A stretch of DNA of 32,000 nucleotides from an uncultured Thermoleophilia bacterium (GCA_963784985.1 CAWATR010000015.1:148902-180901); one strand, 5' to 3'; positions 22,313-31,310 are shown, counted from the stretch's first letter. Made by a program: numbers and translations. Notes: generated by a model not told the origin, from the sequence alone.

Positions 22313-23699
22313 TTAGTGCCGGAAGCCTTCCTTGTGGATCGCCGACGGCGTGCGCTCGGGTTCCGTGGCGAAGGCCTCGAGCACGTCGTGCATGTGCGCG
22401 AGCAGCAGCCGCGCGAGGTCGTGGCTGAACCCGTGCCGCACCACGATGCGGCAGATCACCAGGTCGCTGCGGTTGTCCTCCATCGAGTAGGCGGGCACCT
22501 GCCAGCCGTACTCGCGCAGTCGCGCGGACAGCTCAAACAGCGTGAAGTTCTGGTCCGGGCGCAGCGACCAGGACAGCACGGGCAGGTCCGACCCGTCGGT
22601 GATGATCTCGAACGGCCCCATCTTCCCGATCTCGCCGGCCAGGAACTTCGCGACATCCTGCGCCGTCTGCTGGATCTTGGCGTAGCCGCTCCGGCCGAGG
22701 CGGACGAAGTTGTAGTACTGGGCGATGATCTGGCCGCCGGCCGTGAGAAGTTGATGCCGAAGGTCGGCATGTTGCCGCCCAGGTAGTTCACCCGGAAGAT
22801 CAGCTCTTCGGGCAGTTCGGCCGCATCACGCCAGAGCACCCAGCCCACCCCCAGCGGGGCGAGCCCGTACTTGTGCCCGGACGCGTTGATGGACTTGACC
22901 CGGGGGACCCGGAAGTCCCATTCGAGGTCGGGCTGCAGGAACGGCGCGACGAACCCGCCGCTGGCGCCGTCGACGTGGATCGGGATGTCGAGTCCGGTGC
23001 GCTCTTGCAGGTCGTCGAGCGCCGCGTTGATTTCGGCGATCGGCTCGTATTCGCCCGTGAACGTGGATCCGAGCACGGCGACGACGGCGATCGTGTTCTC
23101 GTCGCAGCGCTTGACCGCTTCGTCCGCGCTGAGGATGAATCGGTTGCCTTCCATGGGAACGAGCCGCTCCTCGACGTCCCAGTAGCGGGCGAACTTGTGC
23201 CAGCACACCTGCACGTTGGACCCGGTCACGATGTTGCGGTCGGTCCGTCGGGCGCCCCGCTGCCCGCTGGCGCTGTTGCCAGCGGCGCAGCAGCGCCATC
23301 CCGCCCAGCATGCAGGCCTCGCTCGAGCCCGTCGTCGAGGTGCCGATCACGTCCTTGCGCAGTCGGGCGCGTTCCAGAGGTCGCCGAGCATGTTCACGCA
23401 GCGCAGCTCGAGCTCGGCGGTCTGCGGGTACTCGTCCTTGTCGATCATGTTCTTGTCGAAGCTCTTGGCCATCAGCAGCAGCAGCTCCGGCTCGGCCCAG
23501 GTCTGGCAGAACGTCGCCAGGTTGAGCCGCGCGTTGCCTTCCACCATCATCTCGTCGCGGACGAGCTCGTAGGCGTGGCGCGCATCCCACTCGTCGTCGG
23601 GCATCTTGTACTTGGGCGCGCTCCACGACGGATCCGTGCTGACGTAGACGTCGTCGGCGGCGTCCGCCTCGCTGAGCTCTTGACCCGGTGAACCGCCAT
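22313..23699 (-). CDS. gadB: glutamate decarboxylase (PLP-dependent, GadB-like); four frame breaks as sequenced
   Basis: AAGGAG (23705-23710, minus strand) lies 5 nt before the ATG at 23699. The protein is colinear with GadB across four ORF fragments: '[13 protein letters not shown]', '[23 protein letters not shown]', '[16 protein letters not shown]', '[15 protein letters not shown]', '[14 protein letters not shown]', '[22 protein letters not shown]', '[28 protein letters not shown]', '[11 protein letters not shown]', C-terminal 'GFRH'. Changes are near 23676 (-1), 23360 (-1), 23240 (+1) and 22730 (-1). Confidence 0.92.
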
Positions 23700-23950
23700 G
23701 GTGCTCCTTTGGGTGTCCCGTGCCGCCGCTGATCGCCCGGCGGGCGCCATGGCGGAGAGTCTCTCATGACCGGAGGGACGCGCGACCGCCGTGGCGATGT
23801 CGCGCGCCTCGCTTGCGATCCTGGCAGACGGCCCTCGCGAGAGGTCAACATTGGTCTGCGGGGCCGGTACGGCGGGCGCAGTCGTTCGATATCGGTACCT
23901 GTATCACCGTCTGCCGGCGGCACCGGCGTCGTAGATTCGACGAGGTAGCC

Positions 23951-24550
23951 ATGACCGAGCCCGAAGTATTCGTCCTCGCCGACCGCGCACTGAACGGCGT
24001 CGTTGCGCAAATCCGGCCCGACCAGTGGGACATGCCGATGCCGGCGGAGTTTCAGCGGCGCGACAGCGACCACACGCCGACGCTGCGGGAGATCGTCAAC
24101 TACCACGCCTACGACGACGCCTGGGTCCCCGCGATGCTGGCGGGTTGGACGATGGAGGAGGTCGGCCACGAGGCCTACTCGGGCGATCTGCTGGGTGACG
24201 ACCCGCAGGCGAGCTTCGCGGCCCTGGTAGACACGGCCTGCGCAGCGGCCGTCGCGGTCACCGACCCCAACCAGACGGTGCACTGCTCGTTCGGCAACTA
24301 CACGGTCCAGGAGTACTTCTGGCAGATCACGATGTTTCGCGGCCTGCGGGCCCACGACATCGCCCGGGCCATCGGCGTCGAGCCGGCCCTGCCTGATGCG
24401 CTGATCGAGGGGCTCTGGGAGGAGATCAGCCCGCACGCGGAGGAGTGGCGCCTCATGGGGATCTTCCCGCCGGCGATTCCCGTCGCCGAGGACGCCCCAC
24501 TGTGTGATCGCCTGCTGGGCCTGACCGGCCGGCGCCCAGGCAACGCCTGA
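23951..24550 (+). CDS. DinB-superfamily / TIGR03086-like protein (mycothiol-maleylpyruvate-isomerase N-terminal-like), 199 aa, intact
   Basis: GAGG lies 5 nt before the ATG at 23951. '[23 protein letters not shown]...[20 protein letters not shown]' resembles the DinB-like four-helix family. The assignment is from pattern memory and is not verified. Confidence 0.5.
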
Positions 24551-24598
24551 GCCCGCGTCCGGCGGCGGGACCGCCCTGCGGGCTTCGCCTAGGCGAAG
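24551..24598. terminator. hairpin-rich 38-bp convergent spacer including a 16-bp perfect palindrome over a stop codon
   Basis: GCCCGC (24551-24556) pairs with GCGGGC (24578-24583). CTTCGCCTAGGCGAAG (24583-24598) is a perfect palindrome centred on CTAG. It contains the TAG stop (24589-24591, minus strand) of the PPDK-like gene. Confidence 0.35.
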
Positions 24599-26211
24599 GT
24601 CTGCTGCCAGTCGCGAACGCGCGCGATCAGCTCGAGCGGCCGCTCGTCGATGAGGATCAGCTCACCGACGTAGATCCGACCATCGGTGCCATCGACGGTG
24701 ATCGTGTCGCCCGGGTGCAGCTCGCTGCTGCCGATGCGCACCACCTGGCCGCCGAGATTGATCGACAGCTCGCGGCACCCGACCAGGCAGGCGATCCCCA
24801 GGTGACGGGCGACGACGGCGGCGTGCGACGTGCGGGCGCCCGCCGCGGTGACGAGCCCCCGGCACACCGACAGGCCGGCGATGTCATCGGTGGAGAGCTG
24901 CTCACGGACGAGGATCACCTGCTGGCCCGCGTCGGCGAACCGTGTCGCCGTCGCAACGTCGAGGGCGATCCGCCCGCACGCCACACCCGCGCTCGCCGGC
25001 ACCGCCTGCGCAACCGGCTGCGGCTCCTGATCCGACGCGAGCCGCGACCGGCTGATCGTGTCGATGTCGTATGCCTGCAGGCGGGCGAGCGCGGTCGGAG
25101 GGTCGATCACGCCGTCATCCACGAGATCGCAGGCGATGCGCAGCGCCGCCCACGCGGTGCGCTTGGCGGCGCGCGTCTGCAACAGCCACAGCGCGCCGTC
25201 TTCGACGGTGAACTCGAAGTCCTGGGCGTCGCCGAAGACCGACTCGAGCGCGCGCCGGACGCGTCTGCAGCCGGTCCGCAAGCCCGGGGACCGCGGCGAT
25301 CTGGGCATCGGGGTCGTGCGACCCGTGGCGCCCGCCGACGACATCCTCGCCCTGTGCGTCGAGCAGGAAGTCGACGTACAGCCGGTCCTCGCCCGTCGCG
25401 GGATCGCGCGTGAACCCGACTCCCGATCCCGAGGTGGGGCCGAGGTTGCCGAACACCATCGCCTGGACGGTGACGGCGGTACCTTCCAGGTCCGTCAGGC
25501 CCTCGAGCCGACGGTAGGCGACCGCGCGCGGGGCGTCCCAGGACCGCAGCACCCCCTCGATGGCGCCGAGCAGCTGCTGCATCGGATCCTGCGGGAACTC
25601 ACGCCGGGCTTCGCTCGCGGAAGATCGCCAGGAGCTCCTCGACGATCTCCTGCAGCGCGGCCAGGCCCAGCTCGGAGGCGACCGGTACACCCGCCCGGCC
25701 CAGGGCGCGGGTCGTCACGGCGGAGAACGGCGCAACCGGGCACCCCTCGACAACCTCCGCGTAGGTCTCGATCAGACGGCGGTATGAGTCCCAGACGAAG
25801 ATCGGGTCGCCGGTCGCCCGCAACAGCGCCGGCACGGTCACCTCACACAGCCCGACATTGAGCACCGTGTCCAGCATCCCCGGCATCGAGGCGGCCGCGC
25901 CGGAGCGCACCGAGACCAGGAGCGGCCGGCGGCGCGCGGCGAAGCGGCGCCCGGTGCGCTGCTCGATGTGCGCCAGCCCCACGCCGATCAGCTCGATGAC
26001 GTCCTCGACCGACGCGCTCGCCGCCGGCGTGGTAGTCCGCGCAGACATCCACACCGAGCACGAATCCGGACGGAACCGCCAGGCCGGCGTCGGCCATGCG
26101 CATGAGGTTGGCCGCCTTGATCCCGACCCGCCGCGGGTCCGCATCGCCGTGGCCGTCGCCATCCAGGACGTACAGGCGCCCGTCCGCCGACGCAAGGCCG
26201 CCGGAGCTCAT
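24589..26211 (-). CDS. pyruvate-phosphate-dikinase homologue with the ATP-grasp N-terminal and phospho-histidine swivel domains only (no PEP/pyruvate-binding domain); three frame breaks as sequenced
   Basis: The ATG at 26211 overlaps the upstream stop (ATGA, 26208-26211). It reads '[24 protein letters not shown]', '[26 protein letters not shown]', '[11 protein letters not shown]', '[13 protein letters not shown]', 'DVVGGRH', '[27 protein letters not shown]'. The swivel domain reads '[28 protein letters not shown]', '[12 protein letters not shown]'. The stop comes about 25 aa later. +1 changes are near 26040, 25615 and 25280. Confidence 0.85.
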
Positions 26212-28164
26212 GGCACCGAGAGCTGCTCGAGGATGCGATCGCGCAGTCCGAGCGCAGACAGCAACAGCGCGTCGGTCGCACCCTCCGCGCACCGGCAGAC
26301 GCTGTCGGCGAGATACAGGCTGCGGAAGTCGGGGGCCTCGACGACGAAGCCCGCACGCGCGGCCCGGTCGGTCGAATCGGCCTCATGCTCGAGCGCGGCC
26401 ACCCGGTCGACCGCGACCAGGAAGTCCTCGAGGTCCTCGGGCGCCGGCCGGTTGACCACCTCGCGCGCGATCTCGAGCGCCTTGAGATGTTCGCGGGCGG
26501 CCATGACCGCGATCGACGCGAGCGGCTCGAGCCGCGGGTCGCACGAGCGCCGCCGCGTCGGCGGGCAGCAGGGTGAGCAGGAAGATGGCCTCCTCGAGAT
26601 CATCCACCGCGTCATCGGCGATCGTGGTCAGCGCGGTGATCTTGTCGCCGGCGTCGACACGGCGTGCCGCCTCGCGCTGCCAGTTGAGGATCTCGTCAGC
26701 GCGGTGCTCGCAGCCGGACGCGCGCGCGGCCGCCCGGTCGGCGAACTCCGCGCTCTCCCCGGTGCCGAGCCGGACCACCACGGCCTGCAGGACCTGCGCG
26801 CATTCGACCAGCAGGCTGGCATGGTCGGCGCTCGCATCGAGCAGGCGACGGTGGGATGCGTCGATGTGACGAAGCATCTCGACGCGGATCTCGTCGCGGA
26901 TCAGCAGCGGCGACTTGCCGGCCAACATCCCCTCGGTCGCCGCCCGCAGCGCAAAGCGCGTGATGTCAAGCACCGCGTCGCGGCCGAGGATCTCCACGAG
27001 CGGCTCGCCGTAGCGTGCAGGCACGCGCTCGGCGAGCTCGACCGCGTCATAGACCAGGCGCTCCCCGCCGAGCATCAGGAAGCCCATGTGTCCGACATTG
27101 GCGTCCGCGGCCCAGCGCAGGATCGCGACCGCATCTGCGCGCGACAGGAAGCTGTTGAGCCGCTTGCGGGCGCGATTCCAGTCGAGGACGAAGACCAGCC
27201 GCGACCCAAGGTGGCGAAGATACGCACGCAGCTCGCTGCGATCGCGGGCGTCGAAGCACCCGGTGGTGAGGTGATGGGCGCCGATCGCCGGCTCGCCGTG
27301 GCGTTGCTCGGTGCCGGACCAGCGTACGGGAAACGCGTCCAACATCGATTGGAAGAACTCCAGGCGCCGACGATGCACGTCCGTGTACGTCACCGTCACC
27401 TGCAGGTCCTCGATCGCGATGACCACGACATGCGCGTTCGTCGTGCCGAGGTCGTTCTGGATGAGCAGCCGGGCGCCGGCACGGGTCGCAGTGGTGGCCA
27501 GGCCCGGGTGGTCGAACTTCAGCGCCTGCGTGTCGTGGACGCCCGCCATGAACGCGGCCACCTGCGGTGCGTCGTCGGCGTCCAGCCCGTACACCGCGGC
27601 ACCGTCCAGGCTGGTCGTCGCCACGCGGGTCTGGAGCCGGTTGAGCGCGCGATGCGCATCCATCACGACCAGATGCAGCGAGTCGCCGAGATCCCTGTCG
27701 GCCGAGGTGATCCGGTCGATGTAGCTTCCGCGCACGCGATCGCCGCTCAGATCGGACGGACCGGGCGCGAGGGCGTCCAGCCGCGCCCGGTCAGGGGCGT
27801 CGACGGCCTGCGCAGCGGCCAGCGGTGTCAGCATCTGCCTGACCGCTGCCAGCAGCGTCTCGTGGATGCGCTCGGCGTTCGGGACGAAGTAGATGTCGGC
27901 ATCGATGCGCCGGGCCCGCTCGATGACATCGTCGTACTCCGGCTCGGGCACGCCGGCCGCGAGCCGTTCGTCACGCAGCGACGCGAACCGCTGGTCGGGA
28001 GCATCGGCGCGGGCGCGCGCCGCCTGGAGCAGGCTCAGCAGGTATTTTGCGCGGTTGTTCGCGTCGAGACCGTCGTTGAGCAACGCCGGCAGCACGAGTG
28101 AGGCTTCGCCGAGCGCCTCCAGGACGTCGTGCTTGACCGGTGCGGTGTCGGGATCGGACATCAC
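26208..28164 (-). CDS. unassigned ~650-aa protein with a DUF47/PhoU-like helical C-terminal region; one frame break as sequenced
   Basis: GTG 28164 or ATG 28161, with GAAGG 7 nt upstream. A 593-aa fragment (ORF 26383..28164) has ordinary globular composition and no motif I recognise. The C-terminal ~200 aa carries two 'EH.AD' helices: 'GCEHRADEILNWQREAARR...DDAVDDLEEAIFLL', then (ORF 26208..26615 frame) 'VAALEHEADSTDRAARA...CAEGATDALLLSALGLRDRIL'. A +1 change is near 26540-26570. Confidence 0.6.
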
Positions 28165-28195: not shown

Positions 28196-28486
28196 CCTCC
28201 GCACGCCGGGAGCCGGCCGGGCATCAGTCCTCGCACATCCCACGATAGGCGCACCGGGACGCGAGCGCGCGCGGGTGCTGTCACCTCGCCATAACCGCCC
28301 GCGCTCGATGGCCGCTCGGCGTGGACCTCCGGCTCGCATGGGCTGCCGCCGCGCGCGGCGCGGGCAGGGGCGGCGGCCGATCGCGCCGACCGCACGGCTC
28401 CCGACATGGGTGCTTGCTACGCTCGATCCAGGGAGGACCCGGCACGGCCGCGCGTGCGCGCGGCGAACCTCGATGACGGAGCGACC

Positions 28487-29402
28487 ATGCGGGCGGTGCG
28501 GTTCAACCAGTACGGCGACGAGCACGTCTTGCAGGTCGTCGAGGTGCCGCGTCCGGTTCCGGGTCCCGGTCAGGTCCTGGTCCAGGTGCGCGCCGCCGGA
28601 ATCAATCCGGGCGAAGCCAAGATCCGCGACGGCGCGATGCACGACATGTTCCCGGCGACCTTCCCGTCGGGCGAGGGCAGCGACTTGGCAGGGGTCGTCG
28701 TGGAGACCGGCGCCGGTGTCGACGGATTCGCGCCCGGCGACGAGGTCGTCGGGTTCACCGACACCCGTTCGAGCCACGCCGAATACGCGCTGGTGGAAGC
28801 GGCCAACCTCGTCCCGAGGCCACCTTCGGTCGCATGGGAAGTCGCCGGCGCGCTGTTCGTCGTCGGCACGACGGCGATCGCGGCGGTTCGCTCGGTTGGT
28901 GCGGGACCCGGTGACGTCGTCGTGGTGGCGGGAGCCGCCGGCGGCGTGGGCTCCCTCGCTGTCCAGTTGGCGCACCTTGCCGGCGCGCGGGTGCTCGGCA
29001 TCGCCGGGGCTGCCGACGGGCCCGTGGCTGCGCGAACACGGCATCGAGCCCATCAACTACGCCGGCGACGTCGCCGCCGCGATCCGGGCGGCGACAGGCC
29101 AGGTCGACGCGTTCATCGACGCCGCCGGACACGGCAACGTCGCCCTCGCACTGGATCTCGGCGTCGCACGGGACCGTATCGACACTGTCGTCGACTTCGC
29201 GGCCGCCGCACAATTCGGCGTCAAGACCGACGGCAGCGCGGCGGCAGCGACCGCCGACACGCTCGTCGAGCTGCTCGGGTTGCTCGCGGATGGCCGGCTC
29301 GAGTTGCCGATCGGCAGGACATTCCCGCTCGACCAAGTGCGCGAGGCCTACCGGTTCCTGGATACCAAGCACGGCCACGGGAAGGTCGTGCTGATCCCCT
29401 GA
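28487..29402 (+). CDS. NADPH:quinone oxidoreductase-like, medium-chain (zinc-type) dehydrogenase/reductase family; one frame break as sequenced
   Basis: GGAG lies 7 nt before the ATG at 28487. It reads 'MRAVRFNQYGDEHVLQVVEVPRPVPGPGQVLVQVRAAGINPGE', 'GDEVVG', and the nucleotide-binding 'VVVAGAAGGVGSLAVQLA'. The C-terminus is in the 28140.. frame ('LELPIGRTFPLDQVREAYRFLDTKHGHGKVVLIP'). A +1 change is near 28995-29025. Confidence 0.85.
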
Positions 29403-29560: not shown

Positions 29561-31310
29561 GTGCCCGCTCCGACGGATGGGGCGCTGACGGTGCCCGCGC
29601 GACGCGACGGCGGGCCACGGGAACCGCCGCCCGCGCCGATTCTCGCGCTCGATGGCGACCAGCTGCTCGCGGGACTTCGCGGCGCGGCAACGGCCCTCGC
29701 ATCGCACGAGGCGTTGATCAACGAGTTCAACGTCTTTCCCGTTCCCGACGGGGATACCGGGTCCAATATGCGCCTCACCTTCGCATCCGCCCTCGCCGAC
29801 GCGGAGCAGGCCGCGGCGCCCGAGCGTCGCGTCAAGCATCATGGATGCCGCCGCGCACGGCGCGCTCATGGGGGCCCGTGGCAACAGCGGCGTCATCCTT
29901 TCCCAGGTCATCCGCGGCCTGGCGCACGGCGTCGACGGGCGCGCGACCGTGGACGCCGGCACCCTCGGCGACGCGTTCGCGCAGGCGACGAGAGTTGCCT
30001 ACGCCGCGGTGATCAACCCGATCGAGGGCACGATCCTGACCGTGGTGCGGTCCGCTGCGGCCGGCGTCGCGGCGGCTGCGTCCAGCTCGGGCGACATCCG
30101 GGTCGTGCTGGCCGCGGGCGCGCAGGCCGCATACGACGCCGTCGACGGAACGATCGATCAGCTGCCGATGCTCCGCGACGCCGGCGTGGTCGATGCAGGC
30201 GGCTTCGGATTTGCCGTACTGCTCGCCGGCTTGTGCGCGGCAGTGACCGGCATCGCCGTGGAGCCGGGACCCGTGCTCGCCGCGCTGACCCGCACCGATC
30301 GCCAGCAGATCGCCACGGGTCCGAATGGAATACAGGTGGAGGCTGCTCGCGGGACGGCGGCGATGCCCGACCGCGAGGAGTCATGGGGGTTCTGCACCGA
30401 GTTCATCATCGAGGAGCCGCGCATCGCGACCGCCGCACTCCAGTCGCTACTGGCATCGGAGGGAGACTCGCTGCTCGTGGCGGGTGACGAGGTGCGAATG
30501 CGGGTACACATCCACACCGACGCACCGGATGAGGTCATCGCGATGGCGTCGCGCTACGGACGCGTCGAGCGCATCAAGGTCGAGGACATGTCAGCCCAGC
30601 ACGACGACGTCCTTGCGCGGGGCGGCGGGGCGTCGTCGCCCGGATCCGCCCGCCGGGCCGCCGCGGTCGTCCCGGTCGCTGCCGGCCACGGTTTTGTGTC
30701 GATCCTGCGCAGTCTCGGTGCCGACCAGATCGTCGATGGTGGCCAGACCATGAACCCGTCGACCCACGACCTGCTGAGCGCCGTCGTCGCCGCCCGCGCC
30801 GAGACGGTGATCCTGCTGCCCAACAACGGCAACATCATCCTTGCGGCCGAGCAGGTCCACGAGCTTGCCGAGGGGGTCGACGTCCGCGTCGTGCCAACGC
30901 GCAACCTGCCCCAAGGCATCAGCGCGCTCTTGTCATGGGACCCGGGTGTCGGTATCGATGACTGCGTGGACCGGATGCGTGCGGCTGCCGCACGCACGCG
31001 AGCGCTGGAGATCACCCGCGCGGTCCGCGACGCCCGTGTCGGCGCCCGTGACATCCGCGGCGGCGACGTGCTGGCGATCCTCGACGGTGAGATCGCCGGC
31101 CACGGAGCACGTGAGGACACCCTCATCATCCAGATGCTCGGCGGTCTCGCCGTCCTGCCGGAATTCGTCACGATCTATCACGGCGCGGGAATCGATCCCG
31201 CCGACGCTGCGTACCTCCTGTCCTCACTTGAATCCGCGCATCCGACGATCGGGTTCGAGCTGCACGAGGGCGGCCAGGATCACTACACGTACGTGCTCGG
31301 ACTGGAGTAG
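29561..31310 (+). CDS. DAK2 domain fusion protein (YloV-like); one frame break as sequenced; start uncertain
   Basis: 'INEFNVFPVPDGDTGSNM' is in the 29561 frame. ORF 29841..31310 reads 'HGALMGARGNSGVILSQ', 'NPIEGTILTV', 'LRDAGVVDAGGFGF', and a C-terminal DegV-partner-like domain ('GFVSILRSLGADQIVDGGQTMNPST'). A +1 change is near 29825-29840. GTG 29561 and GTG 29588 are candidate starts and neither has a clear SD. Confidence 0.85.

Follow-up and report, generated by a model that had tools for sequence, protein, structure and literature searches.

A short pyruvate, phosphate dikinase homologue encoded beside a large protein with a PhoU-like tail: a putative two-subunit phosphotransfer unit in bacteria and archaea

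Two overlapping genes and their frame breaks

The subject of this work is a pair of genes in a 32,000-nucleotide stretch of DNA (the window; G+C ~70%) from an uncultured Thermoleophilia bacterium (GCA_963784985.1 CAWATR010000015.1:148902-180901). The first gene encodes a large protein, here called the partner, and the second a short homologue of pyruvate, phosphate dikinase (PPDK). Our results revealed that the short PPDK has the ATP-grasp and phospho-histidine domains of PPDK and no TIM barrel, the triosephosphate isomerase-type domain that binds phosphoenolpyruvate (PEP) and pyruvate; that it forms a clade apart from canonical PPDK and from the mycobacterial kinase VadK; and that it is strictly paired with the partner, to which it is fused in several assemblies. 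The partner joins an N-terminal domain of no recognised family to a PhoU-like C-terminal bundle. The two genes, with the single extra bases that interrupt their open reading frames (ORFs), lie as follows; L001 and L002 are two independent metagenome contigs, ~98% identical to the window, in which both genes are intact.

26208..28161 (-): partner gene, 650 aa after removal of the extra base 26535; from ORF calls and a repaired translation that matches the intact homologue P0001
24589..26211 (-): short PPDK gene, 539 aa after removal of the extra bases 26007, 25613 and 25262
26208..26211 (-): ATGA stop/start overlap of both genes (partner stop TGA 26208-26210, short PPDK start ATG 26209-26211)
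26535 (-): extra base breaking the partner frame, missing from L001 and L002
26007 (-): extra base, first break of the short PPDK, missing from L001 and L002
25613 (-): extra base, second break of the short PPDK, missing from L001
25262 (-): extra base, third break of the short PPDK, missing from L001

The ATGA overlap at 26208-26211 had already been noticed in a first reading made from the sequence alone (the sequence-only reading), and the coordinates of the TGA stop and the ATG start bear it out. Judging from this overlap, the partner and the short PPDK are presumably co-translated. Note that the partner starts at ATG 28161 and not at GTG 28164, as seen by comparison with P0001.

The sequence-only reading had called for repair of the frames before any other analysis. 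There are four breaks, one in the partner gene and three in the short PPDK gene, each caused by one extra base, and deletion of the four bases opened both ORFs (650 and 539 aa). The repaired partner showed 100% identity, as BLASTP reports it, with P0001, which is encoded on both L001 and L002. Compared with L001, the repaired partner gene carries 23 synonymous and 3 non-synonymous codon differences, and the repaired short PPDK gene 19 synonymous and 13 non-synonymous ones. Both ORFs are also intact in L005, a metagenome bin of an uncultured Thermoleophilia (metagenome-assembled genome, MAG; MFD02134.bin.1.165) that is 92-95% identical to the window.

Other genes of the window are split as well. 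At 22313-23700 (-), 28481-29402 (+) and 29561-31310 (+), a pyridoxal phosphate (PLP)-dependent, glutamate-type decarboxylase is broken into at least three pieces and a zinc alcohol dehydrogenase into two, and a DAK2/FakA-like gene may be split too. These split neighbours suggest a general indel error rate of this assembly. Four frameshifts within 3.6 kb could also be the mark of a decaying pair of pseudogenes, in which case the breaks would be real and nothing functional would be encoded here. However, all four are single-base insertions found neither in L001 and L002 nor in L005, and the differences from L001 that are left after repair are mostly synonymous in the partner, with 19 against 13 in the short PPDK. 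Moreover, the decarboxylase and the alcohol dehydrogenase of the same window are frame-broken too, which speaks for indel errors throughout a long-read MAG. Thus, the four breaks are probably assembly indel errors and not gene decay, and we consider the pseudogene explanation very unlikely.

Domain content of the short PPDK and its partner

The recognisable parts of the short PPDK are the following.

25174..26148 (-): ATP-grasp nucleotide-binding region, about residues 22-345 (PF01326 and motif alignment to Clostridium symbiosum PPDK)
24679..24924 (-): swivel phospho-histidine domain, about residues 429-510 (PF00391 and alignment to PPDK structures)
24823-24825 (-): codon of the catalytic His462, in the motif TSHAAVVAR

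In the Pfam search the repaired protein matched PF01326 (E 1.9e-35) and PF00391 (E 2.3e-20), and PF02896, the PEP/pyruvate TIM barrel, was not found, which is the profile outcome that had been predicted. The protein aligned to residues 11-527 of the 874 residues of C. symbiosum PPDK (E 7.5e-123) and ends in the linker that precedes the TIM barrel. Conserved between the two are the GGKGxNL, VRSGAxxSMPGMxDT, EDVVxG, EFT and LQTR motifs together with the T-S-H motif. Both protein strings quoted in the sequence-only reading (15 and 12 letters) are present, and the stop at 24589 comes 20 codons after the 12-letter one. That reading was therefore right about the ATP-grasp motifs and the swivel histidine, given PF01326, PF00391 and His462 in its TSH motif, and also about the missing barrel, given the lack of PF02896 and a stop that corresponds to PPDK residue ~527 of 874.

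The best 120 homologues of the short PPDK all have these two domains and a length of 490-578 aa. Among the related loci, 57 have complete ORFs, and there the PPDK gene ends 1.6-1.74 kb past the partner stop, with no TIM barrel. Since these relatives are equally short, the truncation is, on this comparison of sequences, real and ancient and not an artefact at 24589. Loss of a barrel by an assembly error at 24589 was considered and rejected: the ORFs of the relatives end at the same place, and no remnant lies in the window, where tblastn with two TIM-barrel domains as queries gave no match (best E 0.03). Neither the corrected sequence nor the related ones hold a PEP/pyruvate domain, and the idea of a split system raised by the sequence-only reading survives on this point.

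The partner has the parts listed below.

26887..28161 (-): N-terminal domain, residues 1-425, mixed alpha/beta, no recognised family (AlphaFold2 model and null searches)
27088..27783 (-): most conserved core, residues 127-358 (alignment A1, 85 full-length homologues)
26211..26886 (-): C-terminal PhoU-like/DUF47 six-helix bundle, residues 426-650 (Foldseek and profile)
26695-26709 (-): EHRAD motif, residue 485
26376-26390 (-): EHEAD motif, residue 591

The partner has more than 1000 relatives, which go under the names 'hypothetical', 'DUF47 family' or 'phosphate transport regulator' in their sources. The AlphaFold2 model of the whole protein, made from 85 homologues, has a mean predicted local distance difference test (pLDDT) of 92.5 and a predicted template modelling score (pTM) of 0.85; for the N-terminal 425 aa modelled alone the values were 91.6 and 0.87. 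This N-terminal part matched nothing in Pfam or NCBIfam, nothing among the PDB sequences in either a single-sequence or a profile search, and gave no real Foldseek match in the PDB (best E 0.011, template modelling score, TM, ~0.2) or in BFVD. The front of ~430 aa that the sequence-only reading could not place thus stayed without a family in all these searches, and since no characterised family was matched, the split-system idea is again left standing. A Walker A motif is absent from the partner.

Alignment A1 (85 full-length partner homologues, 31-78% identical to the first sequence) has 15 invariant columns, and all 15 fall inside the core: R127, F204, G207, G220, H244, D261, R266, F269, W281, L315, D327, W328, N329, L348 and G357. 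Such an invariant core, rich in His, Asp and Arg, fits a putative catalytic or ligand site. We rejected the possibility that the partner is a divergent PEP/pyruvate TIM barrel: the hhalign probability was 0.08%, and at residues 222-261 of the model four strands follow one another with no helix between them. As for longer forms of the partner, the N-terminal extension in L080 (a 1395-aa open frame) is spurious, the real genes being on the other strand, and the longer 'partner' calls P0037 and P0051 contain no additional domains.

The tail of the partner gave its best Foldseek match with the PhoU-like structure 3l39 (TM 0.80 on the target, root-mean-square deviation 2.6 A), followed by 2iiu, 2olt and PhoU 1t72, and the family profile found 3l39 among the PDB sequences at E 7e-8. 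PF01865 matched the window protein at residues 443-602 with 21.2 bits against a gathering cutoff of 24.4; among the homologues that matched, scores ran from 24.2 to 36.9 bits, some of them above the cutoff, and other homologues had no match. Thus, the DUF47/PhoU-like tail claimed from the sequence holds for the bundle fold and the two EHxAD motifs; by PF01865 the window protein lies just below the cutoff that some of its homologues pass. Known DUF47 proteins are stand-alone and of about 205 aa. As in these proteins (PF01865; 3L39, 2IIU, 2OLT), the last ~225 residues of the partner form a six-helix bundle with paired acidic motifs; here, however, this bundle makes up the C-terminal third of a chain of 650 aa and is coupled to a kinase.

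A short PPDK alone is not new; new are the distinct clade and the obligate partner. VadK (Rv1127c) of Mycobacterium tuberculosis is a truncated PPDK without the PEP/pyruvate domain and a histidine kinase, which autophosphorylates on its catalytic His422 with ATP and Mg (Pascoe et al., EMBO Rep 2026, PMC13400623). It is co-expressed and co-purifies with its operon partner Rv1126c, has been proposed to regulate the methylcitrate cycle through binding of its enzymes, and was presented as a trait of pathogenic mycobacteria and relatives (PMC13400623). Like VadK, the window protein has the ATP-grasp domain, the swivel His and a SHAAVV motif and lacks the PEP/pyruvate domain, and VadK is also co-transcribed with a second protein. 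That second protein, however, is the downstream 201-aa Rv1126c, whereas in the window pair the companion gene lies upstream and encodes 650 aa, with a novel domain followed by a PhoU-like tail. VadK genes adjoin methylcitrate-cycle genes. The type of pair seen in the window is spread over bacteria and archaea. The neighbours of the window pair are the PLP decarboxylase and the zinc alcohol dehydrogenase, not methylcitrate-cycle genes. No downstream gene of the Rv1126c type was found: among the ORFs of at least 60 aa listed, the only same-strand one directly after 24589 is of 81 aa (24298-24543) and sits inside a plus-strand ORF (23720-24550).

With NF004531, the model of the VadK type (cutoff 456), the window protein scored 443.2 bits (profile positions 12-461 of 534). 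Four further proteins of such pairs, which come from Amycolatopsis, Aquabacterium, Methylocella and an archaeal contig, scored 404-438 bits, against 838.5 bits over positions 12-530 for a VadK-like protein of Mycobacterium branderi. In a neighbour-joining tree 23 pair-linked proteins were split from all others in 100 of 100 bootstraps, the outgroup being small (four full-length PPDKs, the M. branderi VadK-like protein and a Rhodococcus opacus short form). Orthology with VadK was rejected on these two grounds.

Two plasmids carry other short forms. On M. branderi pJCM12687 (L091:5022-8848) a VadK-type short PPDK with a VadK-like His motif comes before a 200-aa protein, the counterpart of Rv1126c, which carries a MarR-family annotation and has no Pfam match, and the other strand encodes a 543-aa protein whose sole recognised domain is a C-terminal PEP-utilizers mobile domain. 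On R. opacus B4 pROB02 (L092:4833-6545) a 570-aa short 'pyruvate, phosphate dikinase' without partner sits between a cytochrome P450 gene and genes for a ferredoxin and an FAD-oxidoreductase; it appears to be an independent truncation.

Canonical PPDK (EC 2.7.9.1; C. symbiosum, 1KBL) has the ATP-grasp motifs, the TSH motif and part of the second linker in common with the short PPDK, and differs by its C-terminal TIM barrel of ~350 aa (PF02896). With TIGR01828, the PPDK equivalog model (cutoff 843.45 bits), the short PPDK scored 523.7 bits. By the cutoffs of their models, it is thus placed in neither the canonical PPDK nor the VadK-type family.

Dikinase-type systems split or rebuilt in other ways are known. 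In rifampin phosphotransferase and similar enzymes the cassette of ATP-grasp and swivel His is joined to an acceptor domain other than a TIM barrel in the same chain. Families of this type gave weak matches to the short PPDK, in the swivel domain only, and the rifampin phosphotransferase structures 5fbs and 5hv1 are absent from the 50 best Foldseek matches listed for the partner. Phenylphosphate synthase PpsABC of Thauera aromatica is a PEP-synthase-type dikinase split over polypeptides of adjacent genes, with an additional subunit of unclear role that stimulates the enzyme (PMC6114531). There the split separates the ATP-binding beta subunit from the alpha subunit with the His and phenol-binding parts (PMC6114531), whereas in the window pair the ATP-grasp and His domains share one chain, only the third component is on a separate chain, and the partner has no detectable relation to dikinase domains.

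Pairing, fusions and gene neighbourhood

We collected 80 loci by a metagenome scan with the partner profile, to which eight loci fetched earlier were added; a genome scan with a single protein gave only four loci. In every one of the 81 loci that extend at least about 220 bases past the partner stop, the next gene is a short PPDK in the same orientation; the seven loci in which it does not follow have too little sequence left. The same 4-base overlap is present in 20 related loci, and most other junctions are within about 20 bases. Moreover, natural fusions of 1200-1213 aa, in which the partner, the ATP-grasp and the His domain form one chain, occur in several independent assemblies; one of them is MGO8905770.1, a protein of a Solirubrobacteraceae MAG. 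Conservation of the two genes as neighbours had been put forward by the sequence-only reading as decisive for its proposal, which came through this test. Because the pairing is found in 81 of 81 loci and because fusions occur, functional coupling of the partner and the short PPDK is well supported.

Compared with window 24589-28161, the two-gene unit of L007:6001-9581, from another Thermoleophilia MAG (77-81% identical), is inverted between collinear flanks; the gene that separates the pair from the right flank is not similar. As named by the sources, hosts of the pair include Thermoleophilia, Acidimicrobiia, Amycolatopsis, Streptosporangiaceae, Rhodoferax, Aquabacterium, Methylocella, Methanomethylovorans and Halobacteria MAGs, so that the pair spans Actinomycetota, Proteobacteria and archaea. 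Among 98 plasmid records matched by the short PPDK, the partner is present only in the two top matches, Aquabacterium olei pTB101 and Methylocella tundrae T4 p1. Two short PPDKs taken from the homologue list (P0373 and P0347) have directly upstream a 662- or 663-aa gene without Pfam domain, whose homology to the partner is unchecked.

Censuses of the upstream and downstream neighbours were heterogeneous and revealed no conserved third gene. Some neighbours recur:

CYTH-CHAD, directly upstream of the pair: L003, L004, L017
PPK2, near the pair: L025, L042, L052, L099
PhoU, near the pair: L003, L065, L071
Ppx-GppA, near the pair: L055

In total, 12 polyphosphate or phosphate genes of these four kinds lie in 0.54 Mb of flanks, in actinobacterial and archaeal loci. 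By a rough estimate of the genomic frequency of such genes, and with some of the loci related to each other, this is on the order of ten-fold above chance.

Several single loci deserve mention. In an archaeal-type locus, Methanomethylovorans-like (L099:9565-12288), the order is partner, short PPDK, a 416-aa fusion of CYTH, Ppx-GppA domain III and HD, and PPK2. A ribose-phosphate diphosphokinase gene (prs-type) is near the pair in two unrelated hosts (L089:7850-10203 and L094:17034-17470), which may be coincidence. In several loci of the Acidimicrobiia type a PF02896-type gene is found a few kb upstream of the pair (L090:103-2577 and, by tblastn, L006:1647-2180 and L008:3224-3757). The one in L090 is a complete 824-aa gene of the PPDK/PEP-synthase type with a Usp gene behind it, so that both kinds of enzyme are present in these genomes.

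A proposed phosphotransfer unit and its alternatives

We propose that the short PPDK and the partner are the two subunits of a single phosphotransfer unit of the dikinase type, whose third site would come from the partner, and we give this reading a probability of about 0.5. Such a unit would work in the manner of the ATP-grasp/swivel-His enzymes, among them PPDK, PEP synthase, rifampin phosphotransferase and the split phenylphosphate synthase. In canonical PPDK the corresponding half-reaction is ATP + Pi + E-His -> AMP + PPi + E-His~P, where Pi is inorganic phosphate and PPi pyrophosphate. In a comparable way, and judging from the conserved residues and from the biochemistry of VadK and PPDK, the short PPDK would bind ATP in its ATP-grasp domain and place a phosphate on His462. 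The phospho-His domain would then, as the architecture of this enzyme family suggests, swing to a third site, supplied by the partner in trans, or in cis in the fusions. There, the conserved N-terminal core of the partner, rich in His, Asp and Arg, may bind the acceptor or may itself be the acceptor. Finally, and this is the most tentative step, the unit could act in phosphate or polyphosphate homeostasis, because of the PhoU-like tail and the recurrent polyphosphate and phosphate genes among its neighbours.

Several points weigh against this proposal. Contact between the partner and the short PPDK, and the passage of phosphate between both, are conjectural. Of the split His-phosphotransfer system suggested by the sequence-only reading, the coupling of the two proteins is well supported, and transfer to or through the partner is a hypothesis. 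The N-terminal domain of the partner has no recognised ligand-binding fold, and its 'acceptor site' would be a guess from conservation. Domains of the PhoU type usually have a regulatory role. Most genes in the flanks have no relation to phosphate, and the enrichment was judged against a rough estimate of the background; and the window copy of the pair itself has four frame breaks. In addition, VadK, the one characterised truncated PPDK, is proposed to regulate enzymes by binding and not to phosphorylate a small molecule (PMC13400623).

The main competing explanation takes the short PPDK for a regulatory histidine kinase similar to VadK, which would autophosphorylate and then signal through the binding or modification of proteins. 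The partner would be a PhoU-like sensor, an inhibitor or a protein target that ties the signal to phosphate status, and not a catalytic subunit that binds the acceptor. VadK autophosphorylates, is proposed to act by protein contacts with methylcitrate-cycle enzymes, and co-purifies with its operon partner Rv1126c (PMC13400623), and the tail of the window partner has the fold of PhoU-like regulators. The use of Pi in the PPDK phospho-His half-reaction would furthermore make such a kinase Pi-sensitive. However, the pair-linked clade is not of the VadK type (NF004531 404-443 against a cutoff of 456, and a separate clade), a core with invariant His, Asp and Arg resembles an active site more than a docking surface, and there is no conserved downstream target gene. 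We regard a regulatory kinase as possible, and as the less probable of the two. That the pair is an ordinary PPDK or PEP synthase, whose TIM barrel is encoded elsewhere and joins in trans, is in our opinion extremely improbable, even though a PF02896-type gene occurs within a few kb in six related loci. Of these genes, the one checked for domains, in L090, encodes a complete enzyme, ATP-grasp and His domains included, and the flank census includes two neighbours in which PPDK_N, PEP-utilizers and PEP-utilizers_C occur together. No stand-alone TIM-barrel ORF is present in the window and none recurs among the neighbours, the partner is no divergent barrel (hhalign 0.08%; strands 222-261), and with TIGR01828 the short PPDK reaches 524 bits against a cutoff of 843.

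A bolder version of the dikinase proposal, which we find rather unlikely, takes the pair for a hitherto overlooked dikinase of wide distribution, with a third site of new fold and an inorganic phosphate species as its acceptor. The unit would then drive the formation of pyrophosphate, triphosphate or polyphosphate with ATP, or act as a phosphate-gated His phosphorelay. If true, this would account for the PhoU-like tail and for the recurrence of CYTH-CHAD, PPK2 and Ppx genes beside the pair, both in Actinomycetota and in methanogen-type archaea.

In the literature searched we found no paper describing the gene pair or its phosphorylation target, and none linking DUF47/PhoU with a dikinase. The current labels of these proteins are 'pyruvate, phosphate dikinase', 'PEP/pyruvate-binding domain-containing protein' and 'phosphate transport regulator'. 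Since the short PPDK has no PEP/pyruvate domain, the PPDK label cannot be right, and metabolic reconstructions that count it as PPDK are wrong. The scope of truncated PPDKs extends beyond VadK to a separate and far wider lineage, with more than 1000 cluster representatives in bacteria and archaea, which is always beside, or fused to, a large protein, and for the main domain of that protein no relative is known. The system is testable, as it consists of two genes with clear point mutants and a plausible link to phosphate or polyphosphate, and cultured hosts of the pair are Aquabacterium olei NBRC 110486, Methylocella tundrae T4 and Amycolatopsis species.

As for the surroundings of the pair in the window, no RNA element, sigma-70 promoter consensus, terminator consensus or Streptomyces-type PHO box was found near it. 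A 206-aa ORF at 23930-24550 (+), with no Pfam match at E 0.001, is convergent with the short PPDK gene.

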